Assembly: GCA_965178125.1 (NCBI GenBank)
Contig: OZ237735.1
Span: 2,542,001-2,606,000 of the forward strand
Direction: 5' to 3'
Source of the DNA: Bilabrum cf. latius
Taxonomy: Eukaryota
Length of the DNA: 64,000 bases
Both the position numbers and the translations under genes were made by a program. Shown piece by piece: positions 1 through 64,000 of the stretch. The stretch's first letter is position 1. The number at the start of each line of letters is the position of its first letter. The notes beneath the pieces were generated by a model. It worked only from the letters and a program-made list of their open reading frames with translations, did no database searches and was not told where the DNA came from.

Positions 1-3000
1 ACAGCCTCTGCAGCCCCTCCGAGATGGCTTGCACCGGCAGCCCGTCGTGGTCGGACCTCCGGCCCTCGTACCGGTTCGTGCGATTGTTCCAGTGCTTGCC
101 GAGGCACATCATCCTGCAGTGCAGCTTGGCACCGTCCTTGAATGTCGGCCGGTAGAAGCCCGCCTTGCCCGCGCCGAGCTGACGGACCTCGGCCGCAATC
201 GACCGGCCAAGCTCGCCGTCCAGAGCGCCGGGCAGCAGCACGGCACCTGCAATGATGCGACGGGCAGAGGCAGCCTCGCTTGCGGGGGGCCTGGAAGGCA
301 GCTGCTTCAGCTGCTCTAGCAGCGAGAGCGGCTGGAATCGGGCCAACACAGAGGCGACCGCCGGGGCCGGCCCTTGCGTGGCCGCACTCGAGCCTACATC
401 TCCGGCTTTCTCGATCTCCTCCAAGGCGGCCCGTGCCGCTCGAAGCTCGGGGAACACTTTCCTCCCCTTGGACCGTCGCATGGCCCAGGGAACAAGGTCC
501 TCTTTGCGACGCGGGGGTCCGACCCACTCGCTGTCCGGAGCGTCCGGTCGCTTCCTCCACAGGTCGAACACAGGGGTGGATTCGGCCTTCTTCCTGCGCT
601 CTCGTTCCTCTCTCTTGGCTGCTTCCCTCGCTTCCTGCTCGGATACAAGTGCCTAAGCGGGTCGCCACGACAGGTCAACCGGTCTGAGGGGGGAGGAACC
701 GGTGCGCACCGCCGCCGCGGGCGCGAGGCGGCACAGCGCGTGGGATTGCCTGAAGCTAGAGGACGCAGACGAGGGCTACGATGCACCCCCAGGCGCCCTC
801 CCTAGCTGCCATACCTCTTCCGCCCTGACGGATGGCTCCTGTCCCGGCGACCCTACCGCGCAGGGCCTCTCCACCATCCAGAGGAACGGCTCGCTGTACT
901 GCGCGACCGAGGTGGCGTCGATCACGCGGCGGCGGTACTCGTCCCGCGGGAGGCACTGCCGCACGTCTACCCGGGCGAGCACGCAGCCCGTGGGGTACGA
1001 GAGGCTGTCGTGCGAGGGCGCGTCGTCGAGCTGGCCATACATGCTGGCGAAAGAGGCCCATTGCGCGCTGATTTCCTTGGCAGTCGGCTTCTTGGAGGAC
1101 GCAACAATCCACAACCCGCCCCGGTGCGACGTCTGGAAGGACTGTCCTATGAATCGTTGCATCCCGCTAGCGACAAACGTGGCCTGCGGCTGGTCCAGCA
1201 CGAGACAGGCATCAGAGAGTCCCGCTGCTGTGCCGTCCTCCGTGGACGCTGCACCTTCGAGAAACGCTGGTCGAGGGAACACACGCTAGGAGCCACTGCT
1301 CGTTGAAGCGGAAGAAGAGCCGGCACCAGAGGATGCTACGGCGGCCAGGGCGTCGTCCGTGGCTCGCCTGGCACTGGCAGCCGCACTGCTCGGCGGCATG
1401 GCGTCGACGAGACCCCTGGGGTCGGCCGCAAGCGCGCCGTTCAGGTCTGCGGGCGCGTTGCCCGGCAAGAAGCCTGGCTCGCTGGGATCACATTCAGGCA
1501 GGGGCTCCCCGCGGATGGCGTGCGCCAGCCGCACACCGTCTCCTGGGAACGTCCAAAAACTGTCCTGTTTCGACGACGACGACGAGGACTGTCCAGCCTT
1601 GCCATCCTGGAAGCCTGGCCTGTCAGACGGTCCGCACAAAGAAGCGTCGGCCGCATGAGCAGCACTAAGGAGAGCACGAGGAGGCCACATGAGGACGTGC
1701 TGTGACGCACCAGGCACGCGCCTCGCCGGGGCGCCGTTGGCCCCTGCCGCGGACGGCTGCACCGACCGCCGAATGGCCTCGTCGATCTCGTCCTCGTCCA
1801 CGTCTCGGAGAGCCCTTCGATTCGCCGCGTCGCCTCCATTGATCAGTCCCACTCCCACAAACACGGAGGCGGAGACGGTCGTCCCGGCTCCCCTCGAGGA
1901 GGTCGACCGACCTGCGCGCGCAGCTGCAAGGGAGGTCCCGGCCAGCCGACCGCCGGCTCCCTCCGGGCCGCTCTCGTCGTCGAAGGGGTCCGAGTGCTGA
2001 AGCTTGCTGCGCTGCGCACCGCCCGCGGAACCGAACTCAGATTCATAGTCGTACCCATCAGCAGCCCCCGCCCGGCGATCGTCACTCCAAGCACCCCCGC
2101 AGGATCGAATCACATCCTTGGCAGCCTGAGAGGCGGCATCACGAGCAGCACCTGTCACTCCGGTGCCAGTGGCCCGACCCAGCGCTCCGGCAGCAACAAC
2201 CTCCATGCGCTTGCGTGCTTTCCTCTCGTGCTACGAAAGGATGGCCTTGTAGATTTCCGACGCGCGGCCCGACAGCGTGGTATTCACGTAGTCATCGCCG
2301 TCCGCACCTGCCTCCCCGCCATCGGTAGCGGCATCCATCGCACCAGCCCCGGCGCCGCCACCAATGCCGTCCAGCGCGTCATCGATGGCCCGCTCCTGTT
2401 CCCTGCGCTTCCGTCGCAGCATGGCTTCTACCGTTTCGTCCTCCGAGTCGCTGTCCCGCAGGCCGCCCGTCTCCTCCTGGGCCTTGAGCGCCGCCTGCTG
2501 CATCCTCGCAGCGTATGCAAGCCCCGCCGCTCCCACCAGCCGGCCGGATTGCGCGCCTACAGTGACCGAGTTGGCGGGCCCTGCCAGAGCCTCTGCCGTG
2601 AGGCCTCCTCCAGCCCCTGCGCCAGACGAGGGCACGCCGACGTGCCTCTTCATCAGGTCGTCCACTGCCTGCTGCCTCGCCTGCCCTGCGTCCGCCACCG
2701 TCAGTGCACCACCACCGAAGGTGATGTTGAGGTAAGTTCCCTGATGCAGGCCGGACTGCCGCTGCCTGCGCTCCTCGTCCGCCTTCCGTGCAGCCTGGCG
2801 CTCCGCCTCGGTGAGGAATGCGGAGGTCTGCGCCGAGTAAAAGTCGTTCTGGCTGTCGATAACGGATGTCATGGCCGCACGATTCCTGTCTTGCTGCACC
2901 AGCCACTGCGTCTAGCGAAACGCAGCCATGTGGGCGTCGGAAAGCACACCAGACGCCGCGGCTGCACCGGCAGCAATCGGCAGCGCAGAAGCAGCCACGG

Positions 3001-5089
3001 GGCCGGGGACTCCTGCGCTGGCTGCCGAGGCGGCTGCCAGCGAATCTCGGCCCAGTCCCGCCGGAGCCTGGCTGGCAGCACCCGCACCTGCGGCACCCCA
3101 CTTGGACGCAGGTGCAGCAGCCTCGGGCTCCATGCCCGCGAGTGTCGCCTTGCCAGACTTGCTACGAACGATGGGGTTGCTGCGGGTGGGCGCCGACGCT
3201 CTAGACGACTTGCCCGCCCGCCACTCCGGCAGGTCCTCCTTGGGCGCGCCAGAGGCAATCTTTGCAAAGCTCTTGGTGGTTTTCGGCCGCGGCATCGCAG
3301 CGCCCGCATGTTGCTAGGCAGCAGCGGCAGCGGCAGACTGCGATTCTGCGTGCTGCCTCGAGACGAGTGCCTGCGCCGCACTCCCTTGGATCCGAAGCCT
3401 GGCCTCTCTCGCCATGGCCTCGGCCTCGTGCATGGGCACGTTGTGCGCCATGCGACCAGCCAGCGGGTCGATGCCCATGCGCAGGAGCTTCTCGTCTGCG
3501 CGAGGGTCCGCGTCTGTCACCAGCTCCCTGGGCCCCTGGGCCCCTTCATCGATGTCAGAGACCTCCGGAGCCAAGAAACCCAGCCCCTTGCCGCTGGCCA
3601 CGGCTCGCTCCGCTTTGAGCCGGCGCCTGGCGTTGGCCGACATGCGCACCTCGTCCCCCTTGTGCAGCCCCAGCGGGTCCGACTTGCGCGTGATAGTGTC
3701 GAATGTCTTGCCGCCCTCTTCGCTCGCGCTGTCAGTTCTTCTGTTCGCAAAGGCCAGCGGTGCAGACCCAGAGAGCACGGCACCGGCGCCTGCGTCCCCT
3801 CCCAGGAGGCTCTGGGAGGCGCTCGCGTGTTCCCTGAGCAAAATGTCCGAGTGGTGCTCCGTGACCACGGAGGCACGCTCCCTGGCATCCTGCACCTGCG
3901 ACTTGCTCGGCGAAATGTGCTCCAGGGGCGCCCCGCAGCTCGAGCAGAACCTGCCTGCCTCCCTCTCGCACAGCACCTTGCCGCAGCACAAGCAGTTGGT
4001 CCACAGGGCGTGAAGCGTGCCCATGCAGGAGCAGTACGGGCCCCGCTCCAGGCTGGCACGGGAGCTCCCCCCTTTATCTCTAAGGTCCATCACGTGTGCT
4101 TTGGTGCCCAGCGCGCCCGTGTCCCCGCCAGCCTCCGCACCGTCTCCATCCGTGGCCCCTGCCCCCCAGCCAGCGGCCCCGCCACCCGACTGCTGGCCCC
4201 CATCGCTGGCACGCACAGCTGCCCGCACTCTAAAGCCCAGGTCAAGACCGCTCTCTCCCGCTGTAATGTATCGCATGGCTTCTTCTTCCTACTTTCTGCC
4301 CTCAGACGCACCTGCAGTGAGACTGTCCCCGGCCTCGGTTGCCGGCCCCCCGCTGTCCCCTCCTCCTCCTCCTCCCATGAGCTTGCGGGCCGCTGCATCT
4401 GCCTCTGCAGCGGCAGCAATGGCGCGATCAGTTTTGGGGGGCGCCGGGGCACCGCCACCGGGAGTAGCACCAGGGGGCACCCCAGCCTCCCAAGTGGACG
4501 AGGTGGACCCAGACTGGCCAGTCGCCTAGTGCTGCTTCTGGGCGAGATCTTCTGCGGCCTGTCCCAGGCCAGCGAGCAATCCCATTCCACTAGATGCCTC
4601 AGCGTCCCGGCTCACAAGCCGGAGGCCAGTCTTTTTCGAGTCTGGTTGCGATGCGTCGGAACGGCTGCCGTCAGAGGCACTGTCAGCCCGGGCAGTGCGT
4701 CCGCGCTTTGACTTCTTCTATTTCTTCCGATTTCGCTTTGATTTAGACTCTCGGTCGCTCTTCGACAGTGCTGCCATGATTCCATGCCTTGTGCGAGGCA
4801 CGCTGCCTGAATCAGGCTGCGGCAGAGTTGGCTCGCTCGCATGCGGAAGGCCAGCAAACGCAGCTGGCCGAGGCGGTGGTGAGCGCTACCTTGCCGCAGA
4901 TATCTAACTAATAACTCGCCTGCACCTGTCGGTACCGATAAGGTTGCTCAAAAACTCGCGTAGATCGTCCAACTGCTGCGCTGCAGCGTGAGAAACAACA
5001 TCAGGATCGGCTTCTCCCAATTTCAAACTCAGCTCATGCTCAAGTATTTCCCTTTCGGATGAATTCGGTGGAGCAAAAGGAAGTGACAT
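1..5089 (-). CDS. TRIP4: Activating signal cointegrator 1 (TRIP4/ASC-1)-like protein: C2HC5 zinc finger + ASCH domain + C-terminal AlkB-like 2OG-Fe(II) dioxygenase domain; 3' end runs off the window
   Basis: One frame from ATG 5089 to base 1 with no TAA/TGA and 11 in-frame TAGs (e.g. 4904, 4289, 3314, 2912, 2231, 1286, 776, 653). Zinc finger CSCMGTLHALWTNCLCCGKVLCEREAGRFCSSCG (~3925-4040); ASCH motifs CLVLDQPQATFVASG...HRGGLWI...YPTGCVLARVDV (~930-1215); GFYRPTFKDGAKLHCRMMCLGKHW at ~90-160 resembles plant ALKBH1-type proteins. Confidence 0.85.
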
Positions 5090-5438
5090 GCTTTACTACA
5101 GCCAGGAAATATGATTCTGAACTGCCAGGAACATGGAGGTTCGCCACGGAATCTGGAACGTTCGCTGGAATTTTTACTGCCGCGGTTTGCCCTTTTCCTG
5201 ACGCCCACAGGCTGCCTTATTGCAGCTGTCGAGCATTAACTGGTGAATCCGAATCCGCAATGTATGTCTTGCCTTATTTCATTGTTACAACATAGCCAAC
5301 CTCGCTGGTGGGGGTGAGCCGTGGGCGAATAGCGCGACCACTCGCCGCTGCCAGCGTTGCGACCAAGTGGCGCTCACTTGAATCCGCAGGCTCTGCTCAC
5401 CTTCAGCAACTGCATCTCAAAAGCCGCTAGTTTGCAAC

Positions 5439-5921: not shown

Positions 5922-6282
5922 TGGAGGGGTCCTAGAGATTCTACTACCCTTGCCTAGCTTGAAGTGCTGGCGCTGTTTTTGCACTGCGCAATCATTTAGG
6001 CAGCTCTCTTGTCCTGCGCAGCGTCGAGGCGTCGTTGGACCTGGTGTCTGAGCACCCAGCCAGTGGCCCGGGGTGGCAGCCACGGGCAGCGCTGGCAACG
6101 CTGGAAGGCCCAACATGCTGAGCATCGGATGCTGGCAGTATTGCGCTTATGATCAGGCGTCTAGGAACTATCCAATCAGCTGTCACTGGCATTGATTTTA
6201 TAGCGTGTATTTAAAAGAAATCATATTTTATGGTTTCACGGTTCCAATACTTACTGTTCAAGGTCTCCACGTCTCTCTCAGA

Positions 6283-9177
6283 ATGATAACGCTGGTATCC
6301 ACTTTACTAGCTGCATCAATATGTTGCTCACTATCATCTGCCGCCAGTTTGGATCGCGTAGAATGTATTGCAGACGACGGATCATTCATTCGCCTTGAAG
6401 GTCTCGAATCTGGCGTGATACGAGCCCGGATTGCCAAAAATACCACTGTTTTCGATCCAAGGTAGCCCGGTGCGCTTCTACCGAGAATTATGGAGGCAGG
6501 TTCGTATCCCCCGAGTGGCTCTGTTGCGTCCTGCGGTGGTTCTAAGGTGTCTGCTGGCGACATCACTGCCGCTGTCCATGCTGGCACTGGGCTACTGTCC
6601 TTCGTTACCAGCAGCACCGACAACGAACCATCAACTATTTTGAATGAAACAGCTCGTACGTTCGGTGAACCTGCGTTTAACAAGTACAAGACGTTCGATC
6701 TAGCTGGAGCTGGCGCAGCCTGTACCACTCCAAATTCTAGCGCTTGCTGCATGGATCTTTCGAACTGGCACACAGAGCCGCACTCCGCCGTGGCGATATC
6801 AAACTGCCACCCAGCTTCTAACGGGATGAACCAGCAGTGGCAGTGGGATTCGATCAGCGGGCTGGTGCGCGTGCACCTCAACACTAGCAACTGCCTAGCG
6901 CGGTCCAACCACACGTCCCGCGGACCTGCCGGGAAATCCGGTGCCCTCGGGGTGGAAGTGAACCAGTGCAACTCAAGCGATCCCAACTAGATCTGGGATA
7001 AAGAGTCACCGGCCCTCGACGGGGCAGGCGGCTTCCTCCTGTGCCTCAAGACCAAAGACACCCAGAGCGGGTGCGTCGCTGCAGACGTAGAGCAAGGCGG
7101 CTCGTTCAAAGACGGGACACCGCTCGCGGTGGTGCCAAGGGGGACGATCCCGGCTGGTGACCCTCGGCAGACGTGGATGGCCAACAACATCACCTTTCCC
7201 CCTAGGGCGCAGGTGAGTTTCACGCTGGCCGACCGCGTGCTGGGATTCGGTGAGCACCAGAACGGGCAGCTGAACAGCAGAGGGCTCGCGTTCGACATGG
7301 AGAGCTGTCTCGAGTACTCTAAGTCGCACGGTGGGGAAGTTTGCCTGCCGTACATCCTTGGGTGGTCAAACGCCACCAACGCACCGTCGTACGGCATGCT
7401 CTGGAACATGCCGTCGTATGGCGGGGCCTCCTTCGGCGCCACAACAAAGGACCTGCGCGACTCGATGCACCTGAATTCACAGGACGTACCGCCACAAGGA
7501 ACAGAAGAAGAACGGGTCCCTGCCCAGGCACGCCACCATGCAGCCGCGCTGTCCAAGGGGTACGCCTCGCCTGATGCTGACACCATGACGTGGACGGCTG
7601 ACGGGTGGAACTAGTACGAGATCGTTGTGATCGCACCTGGCGCGAGCACTGCAGGATTTTCATCAAGCAAGGACACCGATGCTAGCAACACACCCCTTCC
7701 CGCTAGCTCCATCATGCAGCGATACGGATCGGTGGTGGGGACTGCCCCCACCATGCCCGAGTGGGCGCTGGGGTACTGGCACTCCAAGAACAGGTACTCC
7801 ACGCAGGCTGACTTTCAGAACGCAGTGCAGGGTTTCGTGTCGCGGGACATCCCAATCAACATCGCGGTGATCGACTATAACCACTGGAAGCACATGGGCG
7901 ACTGGACGTTCGACCCGACCTACTGGCCGAACCCTGCCGGAATGGTGCAGAACATATCGGCGGCTTGCGAGCAGAACGGGCTCAGTCCCGAGGATGAGCG
8001 CTGCGTACGAATTATGGTGTCCGCATGGCCCTTCAGCGCGATCGGCTCTGATACATACGACTACATTGCATCCGCTGGGCTCGGGGTGAAGAACTCGACG
8101 GCAACCCAGTCTGGCGGGCAGGCGCTGCCACCGATCCAGTGGCCCGATCCCAACTGCCACACGCCAAAGTGCTGGCTGTACGACCCCACTCACGACGCAG
8201 CCCGCGACTTCTACTGGAGCCGCTTGGATGCGGGCTACTACGATCTCGGCATCGACATCTTCTGGCTGGATGCCTCGGAGCCTGAGATCGTGTCAGGGAA
8301 CGGCCCCCCGACGGGCACGCAGTACTCGATTGGGCCACAGAACAAAGTGGGCATGATGTTTCCGTTCTGGCACACGCAGGCAGTGCAAGAAGGTCTGCAC
8401 AACGAGGGCAAGATGGACGTGGTGACCATCACCAGGTCAGCTTGGGCAGGCCAGGCGCGGCACGCCGCCGCCACTTGGAGTGGTGACACACAGTCTACCT
8501 TTGAGAGCTTGCAGGTGTCCGTACCTGCTGGATTGAACTCGCAGATGTCGGGAATCAGCTGGTGGACGCTCGACATTGGAGGGTACTCCGGGGGCGACCC
8601 TCAAAACGAGGAGTTCAACCGCTTGATCGTCAGGTGGTTCGAGTTCGGGCTCACGCTGCCGATCTTCAGACAGCACGGGCAGAGGGACACTGAGCCATGG
8701 GTGCTGGCCAACCAAACGTCATATGATCTAGTCGTGGATCTCATTCGCGCGAGGTACACCCTGTCCGACTACGTGGGCAGTGGGTTGAATGAGACAGCTG
8801 CGACCATGCTGCCTCTGATGCGACCGCTGGCCTGGGACTTCCCATCTGACCCGCAGACAGCCTCCGACCCAGACGCGGCCGGGGCATACCTCTTCGGAGA
8901 CGGGCTGCTGGCGAGGCCAATAGTCAACGACAACGTGACTAGCGTGCAGGTGTACCTTCCCATGGGCCAGGATGGCATGACGTGGATCGACTGCGCTACG
9001 GGGAAGTCATTCGAGGGGGGGCAGTCGGTGAGTCTAGCCGCCCCGTTGGGCAGGCTGCCGCTGCTGAAGAGGAGCGACAGGGCGTATGCTGTGGATGCCC
9101 TCCTGGCCAGTGCCGTGCAAAAGTACCCGAACAAGGCTCTACCAGTCTCCAAGGTGTGCGTGCCAGGGAATGCTTGA
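6283..9177 (+). CDS. Secreted glycoside hydrolase family 31 (alpha-xylosidase/alpha-glucosidase-like) with a ricin-B lectin (beta-trefoil) insert, ~964 aa
   Basis: Signal peptide MITLVSTLLAASICCSLSSA. Four ORF-track pieces share one frame joined by TAGs at 6463, 6988 and 7612; ends in TGA. GH31 motifs PEWALGYWHSK, VIDYNHW, WLDASEPE (nucleophile), WSGDT (acid/base), DIGGY, RWFEFG, MRPLAWDF. QxW repeats NQQW, N-[TAG]-IW, RQTW. Confidence 0.92.
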
Positions 9178-9294: not shown

Positions 9295-12200
9295 TCATCC
9301 CTGCTTCCCTTGCTTTGTATGGCCACTACTAGCACCAGCGCCAGCGCCAGCACCAGCACCAGCACAAACACTAGCATCAGCACTAGCACCGCCATGTGCG
9401 GCACCACCCTAGGCAGACTTTCTGGCAACCCTTTCTACCGTGCGCTACTTCGATCTTCTCTTTGCAGCGCTCCTCGCAGCCTTGATGACAGCAAGCTCGG
9501 CCTCGGCCTTGCGCTTGGTAGCCGCGGCTACCGCGAGCCGTCGGGTCAGCTCACGCTGCCGACCCTGCACAGCAGCTGCGTGCTCGCGCTCCCGTTGATC
9601 CTGCCGCAGTACCCTTTCCATCTCTGACACATCGTCATGCAGCGGCAGCTGGAAACTCTTGCGCACCTTGTCGCTCTCTGCGATACACTCACTAGCAGAG
9701 GCTGACCAAATGTCCACTGAGCTAGACGACAGCGCCTGTGCGGATGCGTGGGCCAGCCCGTCGATGTCGGGGCAATCGTTTGGACGGCCAGCTCCTTCAC
9801 GACCACTGAGACCCTCCGAGTCGTCGCCCTGACGCAGCACAGTGTGGGCACGATGCGCAGCGTGAAGCTGGCGGCACACTCTCTCCAGCACACTAGGAGT
9901 CACATGACTCGCCTACGACCAAAGGTGTTCCCGCCACCTGCGTGCTAGCCGTAGCCTCTGCCGCTACCGGTCAGACTGTTGGGATACAGCAGATGCTAGC
10001 TAAGCCAATCGTTCACGCCTCTCGTTGCCTCGTCTGCTGCGTGCCCCACGAGCTCCGTAGTCCTCCTCGTCCTCATCTTCGTCTTGGTCTATATCCATGT
10101 CCTCATCACCATCGCTACCGCTGCCAACTTCGTCCATCCAGCGATAAAATCGCGGTGTGCCCGTCCCACCATCTATGCCATGAGGATTTTCAGCCTGTTT
10201 GCTACCTTCGGGTGGGCTGACAGCACCTGCTGCAACCTGGACATCGTGCCGCATTAGCCCAATCACACCTGCGGCCCCCCGAGTGCCGCCCCATTGGCCG
10301 TTTGATGGGTTTGCACACCCACCTGCCACTTGAAACCCCCCAGCCTTGGCAATGGATCTACTTCCAAAGGCGGCGGTCAAGTATGACACGGCAGAGTCCG
10401 AAGACCCAGTGCTGGCCGTGCTGTGGGTCGAGTCACTCCTTCGCATTCGTCTATCAGGTGGGACTGAGGCTTGTGAGTCGCCAGCAGTGGGTACTGTCGC
10501 AGTTATGTCCCCGCTTCCACGTCCACGGTTCGGTCCTATGCGGCTTCCAGGCTCACTGTCAAGCAGAAGCGAGGGCATTTCGCCGCTCCCAGTGGGAGTG
10601 TGCCCTCTTGGCTGCTGTGCTGGTGTGGGCGGCTCCGTAGTTGCATCCGGCAGAAGGAAAGGAGACGGCGGCGCTGGAGAGTCGTTGGATTCAGCAGCTG
10701 TGCTTGGTGCATCGTTTGCCTGGCCAGAGCTGCCTCTCACTTCAAGGCCTCTGCTGCGGTGTGTGACCGGGCCTTGCATGCCGCGAAGGTACGGCGTGAC
10801 TCCCCCGGCAGGTCGAGGCGGAGTCGCTGACGGACGATGTTCGCCAGTCTGCCTGCCTGCGGTTTCCGTGCTAGGCAGCTGTCGAGTGGCACCGGCACTG
10901 CCGGAGTGCCAATGCAGCGTAGGTCGCCCGATGGCAAGCGGGCTCGTTGGGATTGACCCACGCAGGATTGCCACCTCACCTAGCCCGTCCTGGCCGCTTG
11001 TGCTCTATGCAAGCGTCTCCGAGCCAGTGCGGTGTGGCGAGCTGTCGTCACCCTCTTCGCTACTATCCTCCTCATAGATCACCGATTGCATGGTGCGGTA
11101 GCTTGGGTATCGAACCACCGCCTGACCGTCTCGCGCGCCGCCATCTGTGGCTTGCTACGGCTGTACAGCACCATCAGTGCTTGGGTGCAACTTGTCCAGT
11201 ACTGCTTGAGCTGCTTTCCTTCGGAGCCGCAGCACAAAAAAGACGCTCATGATTGCGCTGCCGAACCAGTCGCTGAGGTGGTCCAAGGTCTCCCTCCTCC
11301 ACAAGAACGAGTCCTGCTGCGTGCTGCTGCTGCTAGCCTCCTCGTGACACATGGTCATGTTCGTTGAAATAAGCCGCAGGACTTCTTGAATCCATGGGTC
11401 TGACATCTTGATGCGCGGCACCGGTCCCTTCGACTGCACCTCTGACTACTCCAGCAGATGTGCTCTCCACTGCGCAACACGCGTGCACGTATCCCAAGCC
11501 TCCTGAAGTCTACCAACGGATAGCTGCTCCAGCGCAGTCAACGCCGCCACCTTGGTCCTCAATGCAACTATCAGTTGCAAGTGCTGAGCGGATCGCAGGG
11601 CGTAGGGCGGGTTGCCCATCCCATCTTCGGAGTCGCCCGGTTCAGTCCATCCCGCCGGCAGCACCCACGGTGCACTCGCAGTGAAGCACCTCCACACTGT
11701 CTCCATAGAAATATCGGAGGCATGATGTTCGGGCCGATTGAACATGCCGCTAGATGCACTAGAAGCAGCTTGCCCACTGCTTCCTTTGGCCTCGTTGTTG
11801 CAATCTCGAGCTTGGCGTTGCCAGACCGAAGCTGCGAAAACAGTCGACCACAATATGCCTTGCAGACTAGATCTGAGGTCAAGAGTGGCTTTGCGAATCG
11901 AGAGAACATCTGCGTACGATAGCAGCTGCTCTTGGCCAACGGATAAGCATAGTGACTTTGGTCCGGATGCGTCGCTCAGTACCTGCTGCTGCGGCGGATT
12001 GGTGGAAACGTCGAGTATCTGCACCGGGTCCTGCCAGCCCAACTGACGGATAAGGTCTGTGCCTGGAACGCGTCTGTTTTCACGAGATTTGAGTGTACCT
12101 TCTCGTGCACAAATCCGCGTCTTGCTTGCTACAGGGAAGGTGGCAATACCGACTTGGGTCTATCTTGCCTCTTGCGGCGGCTCCTCGGACAGATCCACGT

Positions 12201-15200: not shown

Positions 15201-16140
15201 CGACCATAGAGACCGCTGGAGTTGCACCCGGGGCCATGTACGGGCGAACTGACGCTGCGGAGAGAATAGTAGTACAGTGACAGTGAAACGAGCTCGCACC
15301 GCATGGACAAACAAGGAACGACGATTATTTCAACCCAACTGAGCCGGGGCCGGCGGGTATTGCAGGCCCTGGCTCGACAAAGCACAGTAATCTCACGCAG
15401 TTCCCTCCCGTTTACAGTAAAAAAGACATCACCAGTACGCGGAATCCATCCGCAGCCAAATTTCATCCCTTCGACCGAACCATCGGCTTGGCGGCGGCCG
15501 GCATGCGAGCAGTAGCCCGGAACGGTGACTGGCTCGAGGATGCGGCTTCGGCCCGCGGCTGTCAGACGAGCCTACGGAGAATAATTTGTGAATGAGGTGT
15601 TTTCACGCGCGTGATTTGCCGTGAGCTTCCAGTATCGCAGGCAGCAAGTCGATGACATCTCGATCCCGTGCTGAGATGCGATGGGAAGCAGCAGGTCGGC
15701 GCCCCTTCGAAGCAAGCCCAGGTGGAACGTTCTGTGATCATGGTAACAAAACAGGAATTTGAATCAACAGGATGGCGGCAGATTTCACGGGCGCAACTCG
15801 GGTTCAGCAGACCCAAAGCGCGTCGCCTGCTTGGTGGCGGTCGCTCACGCAAACCGAATCGATCTGGGGCTGCCTTTCAAATCACAGTCTGGCCTTACCC
15901 ATCTTGACCTAGCTTCATGCAACATATTTCAAAGTACTGCACGCTGTCTGCAGGCGTGCCAGACGATATGTAAGCCACTGCAGCTGCATCGACCTGTATG
16001 GGCACCGCGCTAGCTCGACTAAGCTCAACGACACGGCAGTCACGGTTCAGCTGCAGTTGCGGGGCTAATTTGTTACGATTGAACATAGTTAATTGCGGCT
16101 ACAGATCGTCGATTCTGCGCCTCTTTGGCTCCCCAGCCAT
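9295..16140 (-). CDS. RanBP9/RanBP10 (Gid1)-like SPRY-LisH-CTLH/CRA protein with long low-complexity insertions (~2,200 aa, introns in the 5' part)
   Basis: ATG 16140 (MAGEPKRRRIDDL-TAG-PQLTMFNR). SPRY motifs YFEI, FGCGW...VFFTVNG, PAVSM...WAFDL; LisH LVQDFLLHHGYARTL; CRA-like PSVLERVCRQL. The last exon (~15255 to 9295) is one frame with about 20 TAGs, ending at TGA 9295-9297. 5' exon boundaries are approximate. Confidence 0.72.
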
Positions 16141-21022: not shown

Positions 21023-21290
21023 ACTGTCATGAAGAAGTATGAACTGCCATGAAGGTTGACGGGACGATGGTGTGTGTTTTGTGGAGGCTTACAGCCACTT
21101 GTCGATCCAAGCTCACCTAGCTGGTCGTCGTAGTGTCGCATGCTGGTGAGCTGTGTCGCATGACTTCCCCCATGGAAGCCGGTGCGCTCATGCGACACGC
21201 GGCTTTGCTCCACTTGCCGCGGCTGCCCGATTGTATCCACTTCCGGTTTGTGTCAAGCACCACACCGAAAAATTTCACACTGTTCTTTCA

Positions 21291-40055: not shown

Positions 40056-40131
40056 ACCAGCCTGCCGGCATGCCGAGTTGAACAGATATACGTCATGTCT
40101 AGCCATGTGTTTAGATCATGCAAGCGCATAG

Positions 40132-42516: not shown

Positions 42517-42662
42517 TGTACCACGATCAGTTAGTGTAGAGTCGGTTGACGAAAATTGCATGCGAATTCAGCAATGCGTCCGCTCGTCACGGCATTCAGA
42601 TCAGATTCCTTTGCCTGGATTGCGAGCTGCTAGCTGCAGTTTTTTTCGATCAACGTTACCGA

Positions 42663-53406: not shown

Positions 53407-53475
53407 CATCTACCAGAGTCTGACGTGCAGTAGACCGCTGCCTGTCCTTTCACTTTTTGCCATTGTTGATGCCGT

Positions 53476-56400
53476 ATGCGGTCTTCAGGTGGCCCCAGCA
53501 GAATGCTTGGTGCATCTCGAAACTGCCTGCTGCTGAATTCGACTGGGCGAGAGCTTTCAAGACTGTGCATCGGTCCAATGTCTCTTTGGCAATGCCAGGT
53601 GAAGCTGGCCCTTCTCTACAATAGAGATTCGTCTTGCAGCAGACGTGGACCTCGTGGTGAATCTAGACGGCTATTTCATTGTTCCTCGGATGTTGAAAGA
53701 GGCGGTACCGGGATTGCTGCGATGCTATTGCGAGTAGCAGGGGCAGCTGAGCCGGCGGAAAAGAAGCCTGCGAACGACATCACTGATGAAAGGATTTAGG
53801 ACGCCCACGAAATTATTGATGAGTCGTTAAGGGCTGGGAGATCCAGAGGCAACTATGGCACTGTCATTGCCTGCTGGAGTAGGCTTGATGCGCACAAACG
53901 CTAGCGATTCACCGAACTCATGTCTAAGCGCCGCTTGGCCAAACCAGATGCTTGGAAGCGGCCGCACTGGGTGATTATGTTATTGTGGTAGTCACTCAGG
54001 GGAGCCTACCTGGATGAAGGAATGTCAACGCTAGCCGCCAGGCGACCAGCCACCGTTGCCGCAGCCTTGTCGATTCCGACTGCCGAGTCTACGGTATCAC
54101 AGAATGTGTCCCCGCCGTCTGCATCAGAGCTCCACAAGTTCATGTGCTTATCATACGAGTACTATCGCTTGTCTGCCGGGCTGCCAAAGCCTGCAGTATC
54201 CCTGCGCAAGCAGCAGGTGACGGCAGCCATCGCCGGAATTGCTCACTCTCGAGGGGGCATGGTCGCCCTGGCAGAGGCGATGGCGCTAGACATGCACCGT
54301 CCAGACGAAGCTCTGCCTCAGATGATCCATGCTGCTGCCCAGCTCCGGAACCTGTCCTTGGCAGAGGCTCGAGACTGCCTGGACGAGAGGGACAGGATCC
54401 TGGCATCGGTGGAGCGGGGGATGCGAGTTGGAGGAGGGGCAGAACCAGAACCACAATGTACCGTGGACGCGCTCAGTGGGGATATTTTGATGCGAGAACC
54501 AGGAATACATAACACAAATCTGGGGCACCTGCTCGCCGCCGTAGCTTCAGGGGCAAGACAAGCGCGGGCCGCGGTCCACTACCGAGAGCAGGCACAGGCG
54601 CAAGCTGAGTGCGGGGTGCAGCAGGGGCTCGGGCAGGTCTGGCTGGAAGAAGAAGAAAAGAGCGCTGTTCCTGGCGACTGCGGTGCTGCAGCCGGTGCTG
54701 GTGACGATGGCGAGATGGGTTCAGAGCCAGGTGCTGTCCTACTCTCGGAATCAGACCGCATCCTGCAACAGCTCGGGGGCGCAGCTCCACTCGATGCCCC
54801 CGTGCTGGCAGCCGTGGCATCCAGGGTTCCGCTGGGGGTGGTGGGCGTGCGATCCAGCGAAGAGGAGCTGCTTGTGCTTGGCCTGCAGTCGCAGCACCTC
54901 CAGTCGGACTCTCCTGCGCTGTTGGCGCCAGCCCTCCGAGAAGCGAGGGAGGCTGCCATTGAGGCTTCGTCTGGTAGTAACATCGGCAGCGGCGCGCCAT
55001 GCACGGCCAAGCGAGAGGCTGCCCAGCTGGTGATGCTGTAGAGCCTCGCAGCGGCGTGGCGCGCACACATCGTTCTGTGCGTGGCTCAGCAGCACGCGAT
55101 CGAGGGAGAGCCACTGCCTCAACCGCCCTTGATCCCCCCAGCGGAGGAGGCCTCAGACGAGGCAAACATCCAGCACGCCTACCAGTGCCTAAGGCACGCC
55201 ACTGCTGCACTCGTCACGTCGGAGAGCCCACGCCAGGAGGACCTCGAGCAGCTGGTTCACCTCTGGTCCGACGTGGCAGCCGCCGCACGGCTGCTCACCG
55301 AAGGCACCGGCCCCTTGCTCGACCTGCACCACCGATCACAGGACGCCAGCACCGAGGGCGAGGGCGAGGGGTTCAAAGAGGTGCATGCCCACAGCGAAGA
55401 CGAGGTTGCGCTGCTTGGGGTGCTACGGAGGGGAGACGTCGCGGAGACCACCGAGTTCATGTCCCGCTCGGAGCTTTGGCCTGCCCCTGCCCCACCCGAG
55501 TGCACGCAACCCCTATTCCAGAGGGAGTCGGCCAGGTGGGCATGGGAGAGCCAGGTGCGGGCATTGGACGAGTCTACTGCGCTGCACGGCCTGTCTGGCC
55601 CGCTGCTGCACTGCGTGAACGCAGCGAAGCAAGCCAAGTAGGACTTCAGCCAAGTGTGCTCCATCGCGGCCACGGGAGCCATGACCACAGGCAACGACGC
55701 GGCCGCCGCTGCTCTCGCTCTCAGCGCCGGCCTGCAATTCTGGAGAACTCGGCAATCGAGCGGAGGCGGACATATAGACAACGTCCTGTCTATGCTGCAA
55801 AGCCAGCTGGGCGATGTGCTGGACGCCTTGGCGGACCAGAGGCAGGACCTTCTTGCGATGGAACTCGCCGCAACCGCGAGCCTTCTGGCGGGGTCAGGCC
55901 ACGGCCAGGGCCCGGGCGGGGAGGGCGCGGAAGAGCGCGGCGTCGACGAGTGCGCCGAGGTGTAGGTGTCGGCTCGCAAGGTTCTATCGCGCGCTGCTGA
56001 GCGCTATGGTGGTCACTGGGGACTAAAGCGCCTCGACGAGGAGGAGAGCATGCGGATCGGCCCTGAGGTACCCTTGCCGCAGATCACCCAGGCGGCGGCA
56101 CCGGCAGAACTCCGGTGCATCGGGTATGGCCAGGACTATCTGCTGCCGGTGCTGTTCTGCAAGAATCCCGCCAACTATTCCAAGCAGGCGAAGGCTGTGC
56201 TGCTTGGCATGTTTGGGATCAGCGGCGACCTGAATGCTCCGGATGCTGGGACCCCGGACCGCAGCTGGCTGTGCACGCCCGAAGCGCTGGACACCTCTAT
56301 CGGGGCGCTTTGCAAGGCACTGCGACCCGAGGCAGCCTACCAGCTCGTGCACCTGCTCAGGGGCCTCGTGGTTCCAAGGCCGGCTGCTCTGGTGGCTCTC

Positions 56401-57525
56401 GCGGCCTCGCTCGCTTCTGCCGGGCAAACAGATGCCGCGCTGATCGCTGCATCACAAGCACAGGCTCTTTGTTTCAGTGCCCTCTAGACGCACGACAAGC
56501 TCAAGTCGGGAGAGTGGTCAAAGTTCCACGCAGCTGCGCACCCTAGTGATATCCTCACCGAGGGTGCTGCAGACTCGAGCGTGCTTGCCCTCATCCGGAA
56601 CGGGGACAAGCCGGGCGACTACCAAGGGCCCTCTGTGCCTGGGCTGGGCCAGCTGCACGAGCCTGCGCTCCGTCGCGTGGGGGCTGCCGCCTGGCAGAGC
56701 CTGGCGGAGCAGCTGCCTGAGAGCACGAAGGTTGAACTCGGTCACGAGCTGCAGCGACTGCTGCCCGCTCGCGGACACGCGGACGCGCGCCACCGCTCCC
56801 TTGCGCTCGAGCTGCTTGCTAATAAAGTGCACCACGGGGGGCGTGCATCGGGCGGCACGGCGGAAGAAGAAGTCGATCGTTCTTCTGTGCAGCAAGGCAT
56901 GCTTGGCTCATCTATCAAGGCTCGATCATACGCTGGCATCAGCCTGGCTGTTTGCGGGGCCAGCGTGGTGCACCCTTGGCACCTGGAGCAGCAGTCGGTC
57001 TCACCAGACTGGGCGTCCAGCCTGCACCTGCCCAGGCAGGGCCACCACATCGCGCTGGACCATGAGTCCATGGCGGGCCGTGCCGTCGAGCTCGACGGCC
57101 CCGTTGCTCCGCGGCGCGATTCGGTTGCCGAGGCGAACGCTTCCTTCGCCCTCGGTCTTCGAGCCGTCGCCAGGCACTCGCTTCTGCCGGCCGTAGCGGC
57201 TCGAGCGCGAGCCGAGTCCCTGCAGCATGCGCCGAAAGTTTGGGCCGCGGCTCGGCACGAGGCCAACGGGGCCGTTGTGTCTCTGGCCACTCGGATGAAA
57301 GCGTCGCTGCATGGGCTGGTCAGGACAGACCACTCCCGCCAGAGGTCCAGGAAGAAGCTAGGCAAGAGGCGCGGCTCCAAACAGGGCGAGAGGGGGCACG
57401 CGAGCAAAGTGAAGAACCCTGAGGATTCGCAGTGCTCCAGCAGATCTGCGAGCGAGCCGACAAGTGGGTTGGGCGAGCCAAAGCAAGACTCCAAGCCATC
57501 TGTTCGAGTCGTGTTTCGGCAGTGA
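53476..57525 (+). CDS. Hypothetical Ala/Leu-rich alpha-helical protein (~1,350 aa), possibly mitochondrion-targeted
   Basis: Six ORF-track pieces in one frame joined by 7 TAGs; ends in TGA. The N-terminus is Arg/Ser/Leu-rich and poor in acidic residues. No family recognised. Confidence 0.65.
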
Positions 57526-57643: not shown

Positions 57644-58710
57644 TCACGTATGACCAGACTCATCCAACGAAATGCTAGCGCTCACTGCCGCCCCTCCATC
57701 TGCCTCGTCTTCGACAGCCCCGCGGCTTCCACCCTCGCCCTCGCCCGCCCAGCTTTCCTCCTCTTTCGCCATCGAACGCAGCACCTCCCTTGACCCCAGG
57801 TCAGCGGCGCGGATGGGCTCGGGCATGCGGTGCTTGCAGCAGCGGCGGACCAGCTCCGTAGCAGTGTGGAGAGACACCCTGTGCCCTACTGAAACGAAGA
57901 TCGGGCGTTTACTCCCGCTCTTGCCGGACAGGAGGGCCGCGCACAAGGGTTGCTCGTCCACCGCAGACCGCACCACTAGGCAGTCTTTGGAGACGTCGCT
58001 TGGCTCCTTAGGGACCGGCTCGCCTTCCTTAGCAGAGCTAGGGCCATCTTCTTTTGCTTCACCTGCAGCCGCGGCACACGCAGGTTGTTCGCTCCCGAGC
58101 AAGTGCTTGCTAATCGCGCATGCGACCCCGTCCTTGGTGATGCCATCGACATGCAAGAAACTCTTTCCCACACCGATAGTCCGGACGCCAGCTACCACCC
58201 CAAAGTGGCATGCCAATCCACAACGGCGTGGATGCAATGCACCATTCCCATCAACAAGCCACACGTCTGGTTCTGGCAGCTTCTTTTCCCGCCGAAGCCG
58301 ATCCAGCAGTGACTGTAGCGGTGGCTGCTCCCTGAAAGCCAAGAATCCGGAGATATAGGGCTCTTCCATGCGTATTGTCTGCATTACGGATCCAACAAGT
58401 TCCAGGGAGGGGAAATTCAGCACAGAAAGGCACGCCAATGCGTCGTCCGAGCCCTTCACAAACGAAATGTCAGTTCCGCCGACAAATTTGACGCTGTCAA
58501 TGTCAAAATCTGGGTCATTCGAATACTGAATTCTTTCTCGAATCGTATCCTGGGTTCTGCGGGCGTGTGTGTGGGTTCGGAAGCAAATCATGGAGCTTAA
58601 ATCGGGCAGGCGACACCTGTGTCCAATTGTCAGCCTTCTAACGCCTTCCATTCCGTCTGAACTTTATCGCTAACTTCTTTGTCGGCTACAAGACCTCCAG
58701 AAGCAGCCAT
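57644..58710 (-). CDS. ENDOV: Endonuclease V (inosine-specific nuclease)
   Basis: Exon 1 from ATG 58710 (…VQTEWK), intron ~58557-58642. Motifs VGGTDISF, PYISGFLAFRE, LVDGNGALHPRRCGLACHFG, TIGVGK, PIFVSVGHRVSL, RMPEPIRAAD; TGA stop. Confidence 0.95.
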
Positions 58711-58860: not shown

Positions 58861-61800
58861 ATGATGGCAGGGCCAGTTGACGTCGAGCCGCTACAAGGTG
58901 TTGGCGATGTCCCCGATTCGTTCCCATTGGTGCCACCAGATCGAATCCGCGTGCTCGATACTCCCTTATTAGAGGCGTCCCTTCTATAGCTTCGCCCCAT
59001 GATAACTGGTCTGAGTGCGACATTGACAATCGATGACAACGTGAGCCCTCATCGTTACCCTTGCGCTAAATCCTTGACTACATCGATCATTTGAATGCAA
59101 TGTCATCCATAGCTATGACCTCACAGCCAGGACAGGACGTATCCCACCGTAAATCAGCAGGAGTGTTTGATCCCAGCGCTGATGAAGATGAGGGTGGCAA
59201 GATGGAAGACGAGGAGGCTCCGGACCTAGGCGCTCTGTTGCAGTACGCCAAACGGCAGCTGGAACTGGTGCGCGCCGAACTTGATCGAAGGAATGACCTC
59301 AGGAGACAAGATGCTGCACAGTCGAGAGTAGAAGCTCTACTGCGGCGAGTGGAAAGTGGAAGCAGGCCTTGGGCTGCAAAGGGCGAGGACAGAGACGAAT
59401 CGGATTCGACAAGCACCGCAGGCAGCCCGGCATCGGACGACGACCGGTCATCAGGGCCACCAGATGAAGCCGCACGTGCAGACGACCCGAAATTGCAGCC
59501 AGATTGGTTACGATCTGACGGCAGCGCAGCCGACTCGCATGGCTGCGGTGGCCCAGTGTCTCCCGTTGGGCAGCTGCTCCCCAGGGCGGGAGGAGGGTCT
59601 GGGCCCGTGCGAGGACCACCTCCTGCCCTGAGTGCCGGTGGCAAAGGTGAGCGTGTGCGAGCCCGTGCCTCTTCTTCAGGCCGGGCTGGGTCTAAGAGGC
59701 GGCGGTCGGGCACCACTGCTGGCTCCGGCGGGGGTGCGGATGACGGGCTCATGGGCGGCGGCGTGGCCGTGGTGATGGCTCCGCAGTCTGCTGGCACCTG
59801 GGGAGGTGCTGGCGCCGGGGCAGCGGGTGCTGGGTCTGACCTCGGGCTTGTGGATCCGATTCTGGAGACGATGGAGCGGTCCCTGCAGCAAGCGAAGGCG
59901 GGTCGGAAAGCGAGAGCGAGAGCTGGCACTAGCGCCGGAGCTATGGCCGCCGCTGCCGCTGGCAACGGCAAGGCTAAGGGCAAGGGCAAGAAGGGAGCCG
60001 GGGGCAGTACTGCTGCGAGGAGATCAAAGGCAAGAGGTAGTCGCGGCGGGAGCCGGGGAAACAGCTCAACCTCTGGAGTGAGTGACGCAGACGCTGACGA
60101 GAGCAGCAGGCCGGGTCGGAAGCAAGGCACCTCGAGGCTGGGCAAGCTCATACGATCCAAGAAGAAACGGGAGACGGGCTTCGATGGCGGTGTCGTGCTC
60201 GAGTCAGGCGGGGCCATTCGGGTGCGCAACTGGGGCGATGCGGCAGCCAAGCGGCGCAAGGCCCGCAAAGCCAAGGAGAAGGAGGAAGCTGCGAGGCGGG
60301 CCAAACTGGAAAGGAAATCCTCCAGACCAGGCGACAGGGAGAGGCCGTGGAGGACGGCGCAGTCGAAGGGGGCCGCAGTGGCATCGAAACGAAAGACACC
60401 GAAGGGCAGGAGCGGGTCTTAGACCGATGCAAAGCGCAGAGATAGCAAGGTACAGGACCAAGGGGGCTTACCCGCTAAAGGGTTTAGGCCGGGTTGCCAG
60501 TAGTCCGGAGCAGACGAGGGCGAGGTGGATGCACCGACAGGGATGGAGACTAAGCCCAGGCCTGCGTCACGAGCCGCCTCCAAGTCAGTCGAGCATGCCA
60601 CACCGCCAAGACCAGCGCGTGCAGACCAAGCAACCTAGGAGAACCGCTCGCAGATAGAAGAGGCACAAAAGCGTGGCGCTGGCCAGAGCCCGACTACCGA
60701 GCCGTCACGCCCCGCGCTGGACACAAGTCATGGACCTACTGCAGCTAATGTAGCCGGCGGATCGAGCCGAAAGGTCGACTCCCCTGCATTGATGGAAGCC
60801 ATGCCGCCGATTGATGCTGCGCAGCAGTCGTAGGAAGGCAGCAGTGCAAAGGATTCGCAAGCATCACGGGGCAGTATGGCTCAGTCTCTCGACAAGGCTA
60901 GAGGAGCTAGAGAGGTTGCGAGGAGCGCATCCTAGGAGAGTACAGAGCGTGATCGAGGCACCGGGCCTGCCGCAGGTGACACGCTCACTTTGACGCTGCC
61001 CGATGGAAACACAACCATTCGTCCTCCCTTGCCCCCAGTCGGCGGGTCTTCCTCTGCGCCTCCATCTGCTTGCCATCCGACGGCTACTTCATCACCACGG
61101 CGAGAATAGCAACAAGTGGCTGCGGGCCCTGCAGCTAGTCTAGATTACTCAACGACTGGTACCATCAACACTGCTACAGATGCACCACTAGACGCAGCAC
61201 ATCTACCATCGAGTGAGGCGGCTTAGAGCGGCGCATAGTTAACGCAGCCCGCAGAAAACAACGCAGGCGTGCCTTATGCACGCGTATAGAATGAGATCGG
61301 CGTATCTAGACCGTCTGTCGGCGTGTCAAGCCTGGGTCAAACTACAGAAGACTGTGGTGCCGAAGAAAGCGCAGTCTCTACGGTGGTAGTGCAGGCTGGT
61401 GATGCCGCTGCCAGAAACACGGGCAGCACGACGTGCATCACCGCGAATTCTGCTATCGAGTCGCAGCAAAGATCCATTGAGGCATAGTAGCCGAAGACCA
61501 ACTCATGTGCCGCGGCTGGCCAATCAGAGCCCCTTGTTGGCACCACCCGCCAGCAAATGCCTGCCGGTGGTGGCTCCAGTTCTCCGGGCTCCCCCGGACT
61601 AGCCAGCGACCAAGAGAGGCAGGCAGTCACAGGCTTTAAAGGAAAATCGATGCCAGCGGCAGGCAACGTGCCTGTCACGCGTCCCATGTCACGAGGTGCA
61701 GATCAAGCAAGTCCGGTCAGTTCTGCGGATGAGAGCGGTCCCCCAGTGCAGCCTGCCTTGCCTAACTTACCAGTCGATGCAGTTGGCTCGATTGATGGCA

Positions 61801-64000
61801 CTTCTATCGGTCAAGAGGAGCAAGGGGCCAAAGTCGCTTGTATTTCATCATCATCATCATCATCGGTGCCAGTAGTTAGCAGCCCTCGGTCGCCCCGCGT
61901 CGATGTGTAGGCTGGCAGAATCATCCCTAGCAGCAGCACGGATGCATCCCGAGCGGCTGCGCACGAGAGCACCCAGCCAACCATCAGCTCTTCGGCCCCG
62001 GTCGAGGTGGAAGGCAGAGCATCGAGGGGGCTTGCCTTGGTGGCCTCTTTGGGAACGATGGAGCCCGACACCGGCGAACTCGTGCAGAGTGACATTGGTG
62101 ATCGAGATAGTACCATCTGCGGAGACGGCACCCAGGGAAAATTGTCGCGTGAAGACAGAACGAAGGAGCAGGAGCATGTTGGATCTTTGGTGGGGGTGCA
62201 GCCAGATCCCAGGCGTAGTGACGGGGCCTCCGCGGCAAGGCAGCGGTCACCACCACCACCAAGTGAAGAGCAGCTTCGAGTCCGTGCGATGGACCCCGCG
62301 CCCATGTATCCCCACCCAATCGGTCCACAGGTCCCTTCATATTCTGGTATTTATCCGGAATTCTCTGCCATCTTCACCGGGTGCATGGAGGGGCTGTCAG
62401 CGATCGGGCAAGCGGTGCGTGGCGGCCACAGTGGCCAGAAACGAGGCAAGCGCATCAGGGCGCAGAGGGCAGACGCGGTCCAAGCAGCAACGTGCTTCTT
62501 GAGCATACTCCAGGCAGTCAAGGCTCACGATGTGGAGGCTGCCCCTTTCCAGGCGCCTCGCGGCAGCCTTCAGGGCCGCCTCACTCGAGAGGCCTACGTG
62601 TCGCTCATTGCGCCGGTGCAAGCGGGCACAGGTGAGAGCGACAGCGGCAACGCGGGAGGCTCCGCGGACACCACCGACTCAGACGACGCGGACGAATGCC
62701 CGCCCTCGCCCTCGCCTTCTACTCGTGGATCCAGCGATCACGAGGTCGACTCTGTACCCGGGGCCGATGACATCTGGTGGTCAAAGGCGGGCCAGAGGCT
62801 GACCGCGCCGGATAGCGGACATGTACTCAGCCGAGGAGACGCAGAAATCTCCGCTGGGATTGCGGCGCTGCGCCGGAGGGCAGGCAAACCGGAGGCAAAG
62901 CCGGCTCATGCTGCCACTGGGATGATGGCATCGCACGCAAAGCACCCCCCAAAACAGCCCGCTGTTTTGCCGCCGAGTGCAGCTTCCCACAAGGCGGGGC
63001 GCGGTAGATCCTCACGGGACATTATTAGAGCACAAGGAGACTTGCGCTCATCCCTGGCAAAACTGAGAGCCCTGTACACACTCGCCACGGACGATGAGGC
63101 ACTGCAAGGCAGGCCAGCCAGTGCCCCCAGCCAGAGTGCCGGCAACGAAGGCTCTGGATTCGCCCTGCCTGATCCACCGAAAGCTTCGTCTCTCGAGCAC
63201 TTTACTCGCGTCTTTCGGGTCATCCGGAATCGAAATGAGGTGTATTCCTTGGTCTGCAACGCGTTGGCGACGTGGGAGCGCCCGCCGAGCAAGCGCCGGG
63301 TGCAGCTCCAGGAGGATGCGGCGGCCGAGGGCAATCAGTCCTCCATGTGGCCCACTCTCACCGGGGGTGGCCTCTGGAGGGAAATGCACTGGGCGCTTGA
63401 CGTCACTCCCGGCTGGCACCTCCTGTGGTCCTGGGGAAAGCCGCCGGTGCAGCGATCCAAGCTGGTGGTCTGGCAGAAGGTGAACCACTTCAAGCACGCC
63501 AGAGAGCTCTGCAGGAAGGATCTACTCAAGAAGAACCTGGGCAGGTATCAGTGCCTGGGTGGGCGCATGGCCAGGGCATTCACCATCATGCCGCCTACCT
63601 TCGTGCTGCCCAAGGAGTACCTCGCGTTCGCTGAGGCGTTCGGGAAAGAGACCTACGGGGCCATGTCGGGCGACTCGGTGGCGGCCTATGCTACGACCAA
63701 TCAGAGCACGGCTCGCACAGTGGCTGCAGCGGCGGCAGCTGCGCTCTCCGCCGGAAAGGGCGTAGCACGAGTGGGTGCTGCTTCGGCAGCCGGGGCGCAG
63801 GCATAGGGTGGAGCAGGACCTAATTGGTGGATCCTCAAGCCCGTGGGCATGTCGAGAGGGCGAGGGATTGAGCTGGTCACCAGCATCGAGGACGTGCGAT
63901 ACGGCCAGGACTGCGTGCTGCAGCGGTACATCCGGAACCCTTGCTTGCTGGATGGATACAAATTCGACCTTCGGCTCTACGTGCTGGTGACGTCTTTCTC
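58861..64000 (+). CDS. Tubulin-tyrosine ligase-like (TTLL) polyglutamylase with a very long disordered N-terminus; 3' end runs off the window
   Basis: Exon 1 58861-59040, intron 59041-59126, then one frame with about 13 TAGs. Motifs QKVNHF, ELCRKDLLKKNL, MPPTFVLP and, after TAG 63804, WILKPVGMSRGRGI, QRYIRNP, KFDLRLYVLVTSF. Confidence 0.9.

Follow-up and report, generated by a model that had tools for sequence, protein, structure and literature searches.

In a 64-kb stretch of DNA from Bilabrum cf. latius (contig OZ237735.1, positions 2,542,001 to 2,606,000; hereafter the window, always at its full length of 64,000 nucleotides), cytoplasmic translation appears to read UAG as glutamine and to terminate at UGA, in most genes, and at UAA, a code of the type of NCBI translation table 15. 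We give this reading a probability of about 0.78. The original prediction, drawn from the letters of the window, had proposed TAG as a sense codon for glutamine, and the proposal was borne out by the reading frames, by transcript contigs and by the residues of homologues in the columns that face TAG.

In-Frame TAG Codons Across the Window

The window has a G+C content of 61%, and its long reading frames are tightly packed on both strands. Introns with GT..AG ends, a poly(A) tail and the gene content together identify it as nuclear DNA of a gene-dense, GC-rich eukaryote with few introns. Gene families were assigned by Pfam matches, and the gene models of four genes were corrected by RNA-guided splicing. 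In-frame TAG was found in 16 of 17 gene models, 117 times in total, and internal TAA or TGA not once; the earlier count of over 100 TAGs spread over nearly every gene, in exons free of in-frame TGA and TAA, thus agrees with the corrected models. Endonuclease V was the sole gene model requiring no recoding.

The effect on frame length was large. With TAG as a sense codon the longest frames reach 2831, 2009, 1755, 1697 and 1643 codons, as against 1001 codons under the standard code, while reading TAA as sense in the standard code makes almost no change and leaves the longest frame at 1001 codons. We counted codons in 16 stop-to-stop frames totaling 17,809 codons and found 115 TAG, 537 CAG and 200 CAA, giving TAG a share of 13.5% among the glutamine codons; toward the 5' end of such a frame a TAG may precede the true start, as the first three of the first FG-GAP frame may do. 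Among the stop triplets of the window DNA, TGA ranks first in every frame and TAA last in all six, yet the frames are broken by TAG alone, and decay or chance therefore cannot explain them. The gene models and frames are as follows.

2..5092, minus strand: zf-C2HC5 frame (TRIP4/ASC-1-like; PF06221, E 1.3e-07), extending past the window edge; 11 TAGs (4906, 4888, 4720, 4528, 4291, 3316, 2914, 2233, 1288, 778, 655).
6196..9177, plus strand: GH31 glycoside hydrolase (PF01055, E 1.5e-68); TAGs 6463, 6988 and 7612; ends in TGA.
9295..15324, minus strand: 2009-codon frame, no Pfam family; 20 TAGs; ends in TGA.
21150..22640, plus strand: 496-codon frame without homology support; 3 TAGs; ends in TAA.
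22907-24739, 24748-26217 and 26423-28108, plus strand: three FG-GAP repeat genes in tandem (PF01839 and PF13517 in each).
28372..36867, plus strand: GPS-motif gene of 2831 codons (PF01825); 19 TAGs; ends in TAA.
37069..39378, plus strand: calcium-dependent protein kinase (CDPK; Pkinase, E 6.5e-60, and EF-hands); intron 38463-38714; TAGs 37171, 37579, 37705 and 39337; ends in TGA.
39470..40111, plus strand: small LYR-family gene (PF05347 on exon 1); intron 39613-39709; TAGs 39852 and 40005; TGA at 40053.
40132..42567, minus strand: 811-codon frame, no Pfam family; 6 TAGs; ends in TGA.
42663..45099, minus strand: RPN5, a subunit of the 26S proteasome lid (PF22241, PF01399, PF18098); three introns (44420-44553, 44683-44803, 44865-44970); TAGs 44566, 44402 and 42683; ends in TGA.
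45281..47263, minus strand: SURF6 (PF04935, E 4.2e-29); introns 45355-46042 and 47090-47217; TAG 46751; ends in TGA.
47875..53142, plus strand: 1755-codon low-complexity frame; 12 TAGs; ends in TGA.
53470..57525, plus strand: 1351-codon frame, no Pfam family; 7 TAGs; ends in TGA.
57644..58663, minus strand: endonuclease V (PF04493, E 3.9e-53); zero TAGs; ends in TGA.
59070..63998, plus strand: tubulin-tyrosine-ligase-like (TTLL) gene (PF03133, E 3.6e-25), extending past the window edge; 13 TAGs, of which 63804 falls in the TTL match and the other 12 in the extended N-terminal part.

TAGs had also been said to interrupt the catalytic domains of CDPK, TTLL and GH31. This is correct for CDPK, where TAGs 37579 and 37705 fall within the Pkinase match (frame residues 163-395), and for TTLL at 63804; it does not hold for GH31, whose three TAGs (6463, 6988 and 7612) precede the TIM-barrel match on its N-terminal side and are outside it. 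TAGs also fall in the FG-GAP regions and in RPN5.

TAG Is Retained in Spliced Transcript Contigs

Listed runs that contain positions 36900-46899 of the window number 14 and come from 9 studies; in 6 of them at least half of the words of these positions occur. We placed the contigs of four public runs, labelled as four organisms and coming from four studies, on positions 28300-48299 and found zero base differences and no indels. In two of the runs, X6 and X7, the contigs skip eight intervals with GT..AG ends (CT..AC on the minus strand), defining eight introns of 97-688 nucleotides, and one X6 contig carries a terminal poly(A) run beyond 40111, the site of poly(A) addition of the LYR gene. Because of these splice joints and the poly(A) tail, the spliced contigs of X6 and X7 derive from processed RNA.

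The spliced contigs keep nine TAGs in X6 and five in X7, with 0 differences. In CDPK, an X6 contig joins 37009-38462 to 38715 across a GT..AG intron with 0 differences, and TAGs 37171, 37579 and 37705 are retained in spliced contigs of this run only. Both runs retain the LYR TAGs 39852 and 40005, the RPN5 TAGs 44566 and 44402 and the SURF6 TAG 46751, while the third RPN5 TAG, 42683, is found in X6 only. Outside the spliced genes, X6 contigs cover the GPS gene at each of its 19 TAGs, again with 0 differences. The unchanged TAGs of the spliced contigs exclude assembly error, mini-introns and complete U-to-C editing at the level of contigs; contigs can lose rare variants, and editing that is partial or of low level could thus persist beneath them. 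The original prediction had asked for UAG to be sought in mRNA and had named CAG created by editing, tiny introns and assembly errors as what might overturn it. UAG was retained in spliced contigs of two runs, one with a poly(A) tail, and none of the three was seen in the contigs of four runs.

TAG Aligns with Glutamine

Database searches returned fragments from a close relative that are 74-96% identical to the window; the contigs bearing them, 21 kb and 11 kb long, keep the window's gene order. These fragments cover 14 TAG columns and show glutamine in 10, glutamate in 2, lysine in 1 and tryptophan in 1, residues that are each one base away from TAG. We computed the likelihood of the different amino acids at these columns with substitution frequencies drawn from the 3,703 columns of these same alignments. 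Glutamine obtained a log-likelihood of -23.9 and the runner-up, glutamate, -59.4, a gap of 35 natural-log units. For comparison, glutamine is retained in 136 of the 156 columns with an ordinary glutamine codon, and the background frequency of glutamine among the relative's residues is 3.9%.

The columns are spread over several genes. In GH31, the relative (P0004) is 93% identical, shares the position of the final TGA and has glutamine facing TAGs 6988 and 7612. In the 2009-codon frame, fragment P0021 has glutamine facing TAGs 11448 and 11157, and its stop coincides with the window's TAG 11007. The fragments matching the GPS gene, all on one contig of 11 kb, have glutamine at 30832, 33544, 35500 and 36691 and glutamate at 31426, and their stops match TAGs 31579, 33964 and 36226 as well as the TAA that ends the gene in the window. 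In the 1351-codon frame, glutamine was found at 55039 and 55639, glutamate at 53797, tryptophan at 53902 and lysine at 53989, and one fragment runs exactly from TAG 55963 to TAG 56485.

The ends of the relative's gene calls are informative in their own right. They fall on the window's TAG in five cases, on CAG in one, on CAA in one, on GAG in two and on a true TGA or TAA in two; three more ends are uninformative, two having unaligned tails and one falling on AGG. With its gene calls broken at TAG, CAG, CAA and GAG columns, the relative is fragmented in the same manner and shares the code. Gene calling under the standard code fragments nearly every gene of the organism, as it did in the relative, and annotation needs table 15.

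More distant homologues, of less than 60% identity, gave a similar picture. After dropping three columns with at most 2 of 16 flanking identities, we found glutamine at 3 of 4 well-aligned TAG columns and lysine at 1 of 4. Leucine, serine and tyrosine were absent from every well-aligned TAG column. The clearest single case is RPN5, where TAG 44566 aligns within a conserved motif to glutamine in the rat, the human and a third RPN5 structure; with exon 4 of this gene, the alignment to the PDB begins only at residue 29. The original prediction had stated that alignments to another residue would speak against it; they favor glutamine, in 10 of 14 close-relative and 3 of 4 distant columns.

Sequence context within the window points the same way. 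In the frame at 47875..53142, TAG occupies the glutamine slot of a (Gly-Gln)n repeat (50242) and of a poly-glutamine run (50665). The base following TAG is C with a frequency of 0.36 and G with 0.29, close to the values after CAG (0.34 and 0.35), the corresponding frequencies being 0.18 and 0.56 after CAA and 0.24 and 0.42 after the average codon. This pattern is consistent with an origin of TAG from CAG by C-to-T change.

Gene Ends and Alternative Meanings of UAG

Several observations weigh against the assignment of UAG to glutamine alone, or soften the evidence for it. Four of the 14 close-relative TAG columns hold a residue other than glutamine, and the TAGs of CDPK and GH31 sit in variable or unaligned stretches of the PDB alignments, where they are uninformative. 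The fragments ascribed to a close relative might come from a different species, from a second haplotype or from a duplicated or paralogous region; the inference of glutamine holds in each of these cases. For positions 36900-46899 the records list no RNA run, and they give no library type for X6 and X7; an automatic guess for X6 was "probably DNA". Finally, TAG is unevenly placed. The last 20 codons of the genes hold 7 TAGs in 300 codons in comparison with 81 in 12,886 elsewhere (P = 0.004, Fisher test), an enrichment of about 3.7-fold (23 vs. 6.3 per 1000 codons), and C follows none of the 7 near-terminal TAGs in contrast to 39 of the 105 internal ones and 2 of the 15 real stops. As C never follows them, the near-terminal TAGs look like stops, past or present. 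They occur in 5 of the 15 genes ending inside the window, 2-16 codons before the first TGA or TAA:

CDPK, plus strand: TAG 39337, 13 codons before the stop.
LYR-family gene, plus strand: TAG 40005, 16 codons before the stop.
RPN5, minus strand: TAG 42683, 6 codons before the stop.
Frame at 47875..53142, plus strand: TAGs 53122 and 53134, 6 and 2 codons before the stop.
Third FG-GAP gene, plus strand: TAGs 28085 and 28097, 7 and 3 codons before the stop.

The enrichment and the stop-like context are what one would expect if UAG had a dual meaning, glutamine inside genes and, by virtue of its position near the 3' end, terminator at some gene ends. The mRNA of the LYR gene accommodates either reading, since TAG 40005 lies 104 nucleotides and the TGA 56 nucleotides from the poly(A) site and both distances make plausible 3' untranslated regions; searches of its exon 2 against Pfam and the PDB for the C-terminus of the family gave no significant match. 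Relic stops left by a completed reassignment, on the other hand, predict an identical enrichment and context, the sample comprises 7 codons, and a dual meaning would demand near-perfect read-through in genes with 19-20 internal UAGs. A similar situation is described for Iotanema spirale: of 574 transcripts, 81 had UAG as their first stop-like codon downstream, and Pánek et al. (PMC5304391) judged every one of these UAGs to be sense. A dual UAG is a minority possibility, though one to be reckoned with. The statement that no gene ends at TAG is less secure than first put. The ends of all 15 genes were read as TGA (13) or TAA (2), and in GH31 and the GPS gene the TGA and the TAA, respectively, match ends of the relative's gene calls; in the 5 genes with a TAG within 20 codons upstream that TAG may itself be the stop, and the statement is unproven. 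The simplest reading is that genes once ended at the near-terminal TAGs and that translation now continues past them to the following TGA or TAA.

We consider it very unlikely that both UAA and UAG encode glutamine, as in table 6, and that UAA is merely rare at high GC. Most known cases do reassign UAA and UAG jointly, as reviewed in PMC5304391 and PMC11687900, and TAA is indeed the rarest stop triplet in the window. However, given the 115 TAGs and a CAA:CAG ratio of 200:537, about 40 internal TAAs would be expected, and the 17 gene models contain none. Adding TAA as a sense codon extends the largest frames by a few tens of codons at most (e.g., from 2831 to 2861), and the relative's gene call stops where the GPS gene has its TAA. 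With the gene ends of the window read as TGA or TAA and neither triplet inside genes, the earlier assignment of UAA and UGA as stops, in the manner of table 15, stands.

Still less probable is another amino acid at UAG, be it glutamate, lysine, leucine, serine or tyrosine, as found in other variant codes. It could explain the two glutamates, the lysine and the tryptophan among the 14 close-relative columns; glutamine nevertheless occupies the other 10, glutamate trails by 35 natural-log units, and the conserved glutamine of RPN5, the glutamine slots of the repeats and the lack of leucine, serine and tyrosine at well-aligned columns all speak for glutamine. That the TAGs are artefactual or untranslated, through assembly errors, U-to-C editing, tiny introns or pseudogenes, hardly deserves credence, as the four runs show zero differences, the spliced poly(A) transcripts keep TAG, none of the GT..AG introns removes a listed TAG (frame artefacts inside introns aside) and TAG alone breaks the frames, never TGA, though the latter is the commonest stop triplet; pseudogenes were rejected on the same ground, the frames being interrupted by TAG only.

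A Possible Mechanism

By analogy with what is known of other stop-to-sense reassignments, a full reassignment of UAG to glutamine could have come about through a tRNA-Gln(CUA), which is one base change away from tRNA-Gln(CUG) and would decode UAG, together with an eRF1 that has lost efficient recognition of UAG and retains that of UAA and UGA. The genes with 19-20 internal UAGs need near-complete read-through, which favors a decoder dedicated to UAG and poor termination there. Under this model the TAGs clustered upstream of the TGA and TAA ends would be former stops, and read-through would add a few residues to the proteins.

A different outcome, that we are looking at a non-ciliate, GC-rich eukaryote partway through the reassignment, with UAG encoding glutamine inside genes and still ending, or having only lately ceased to end, about one third of them, strikes us as improbable but worth keeping in view. 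If true, it would constitute a living example of the ambiguous-intermediate route for uncoupling UAG from UAA.

On the age of the change, fragments of distant homologues with 37-51% identity and lengths of 687, 342 and 224 residues, together 1,253 residues, are free of TAG and of any stop. This hints that the change of code may be recent or confined to a narrow clade, with the caveat that the search favors long unbroken fragments.

Other Features of the Window

A tRNA scan of the 64-kb window found no tRNA gene, and the eRF1 gene does not lie within it. A 5S rRNA gene was identified at 53278-53396 on the plus strand (Rfam RF00001, 81 bits), solitary between two protein-coding genes; neither 18S nor other rRNA genes are linked to it within the window. 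An Atlas search with endonuclease V matched generic clusters only and gave no taxonomic pointer to the bicosoecid-like stramenopile lineage suggested earlier.

The longest ORF (open reading frame) of the window under the standard code is a stop-free frame of 1001 codons at 1706-4711 on the plus strand, antisense to the zf-C2HC5 gene. This frame is probably an artefact of the high GC content on the antisense strand, and it would mislead a gene caller operating on the standard code.

The three FG-GAP copies are near-identical and have TAGs common to all three, including those at 23330/25003/26678 and 24152/25825/27500. A (TG)n-like repeat encodes a Cys-Val run at the end of each gene, and beyond this run the copies continue in diverging frames. 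At a short (Ser-Asp)n-coding repeat in the GPS gene (about 35300-35340), the contigs of all four runs break or pile up, and the depth peaks at 1134 in run X7; the repeat is common to other loci or organisms. The CDPK intron is 252 nucleotides long, a multiple of three, and lacks in-frame TGA and TAA. If left unspliced, the gene remains open, with 84 spurious residues separating the pairs of EF-hands.

The nearest non-self homologues of GH31 show 52% and 47% identity, and a scan of metagenomes with the 52% homologue returned three GC-rich contigs on which these homologues lie, L001 (6270-8450), L002 and L003. The three contigs have no other gene in common with the window, and the long frames of L001 contain no in-frame TAG. 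They probably come from unrelated organisms and are uninformative on the spread of the code. The GH31 gene may have an unusual history, for example a transfer from or to another group.

Comparison with Known Systems

For many years UAG was held to be incapable of reassignment by itself while UAA remained a stop, as eRF1 and the wobble rules couple the two codons. The window represents a true variant of the nuclear code, of a type already described, in a lineage that appears to lie outside the published cases. As a further and probably independent UAG-only case, GC-rich and dominated by TGA stops, it would add a data point on the uncoupling of UAG and UAA, and the organism would supply a new pair of eRF1 and tRNA-Gln for study.

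The same codon has the same meaning in code 15 phages, crAss-like and others, for which TAG as glutamine is described in PMC9523058. These are bacterial viruses with suppressor tRNAs, whereas the window is eukaryotic nuclear DNA with introns and polyadenylated mRNAs. Among nuclear codes, the joint assignment of UAA and UAG (UAR) to glutamine, that of table 6, is listed in PMC11687900 for hexamitid diplomonads, Ulvophyceae, oxymonads, an aphelid and many ciliates. These codes likewise turn a stop into glutamine, presumably via a mutated tRNA-Gln, but UAA is sense there and not in the window. Changes of UAG alone to leucine, serine or glutamate are known elsewhere, according to PMC11687900 and PMC5304391.

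Context-dependent codes, in which codons serve as both stop and sense, are reported from Condylostoma, Parduczia and Blastocrithidia (PMC5304391). A dual UAG would resemble the codes of Condylostoma, the karyorelict ciliates or Blastocrithidia, and the parallel applies only if the near-terminal TAGs of the window still terminate. The dual meaning is genome-wide in those codes, whereas the window offers a statistical hint from 7 codons.

Under the preferred reading, UAG as glutamine alone, the close counterparts are few. Besides Iotanema spirale (PMC5304391), UAG-only codes for glutamine are recorded in PMC11687900 for Protocruzia tuzeti and two phyllopharyngean ciliate lineages, which the original prediction had not included among the known cases; in the literature searched, no further eukaryote with such a code is named. 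In Protocruzia and the phyllopharyngean lineages the same codon has taken the same meaning with UAA still a stop (PMC11687900). The window, set against them, is long multi-gene DNA with GT..AG introns of 97-688 nucleotides. To our knowledge, no ciliate has a GC content of 61%.

A close likeness is to Iotanema spirale, a member of Fornicata, in which, as described in PMC5304391, UAG alone has been reassigned, to glutamine, and UAA and UGA are stops. In both, UAG is a minority glutamine codon, with a share of about 8% in Iotanema (PMC5304391) and 13.5% in the window, and in both, toward the 3' ends of genes, UAG frequently precedes any other stop-like codon, with a real stop after it (PMC5304391). 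The two differ in their main terminator, which is UAA in Iotanema (PMC5304391) and TGA, in 13 of 15 genes, in the window with its 61% GC.

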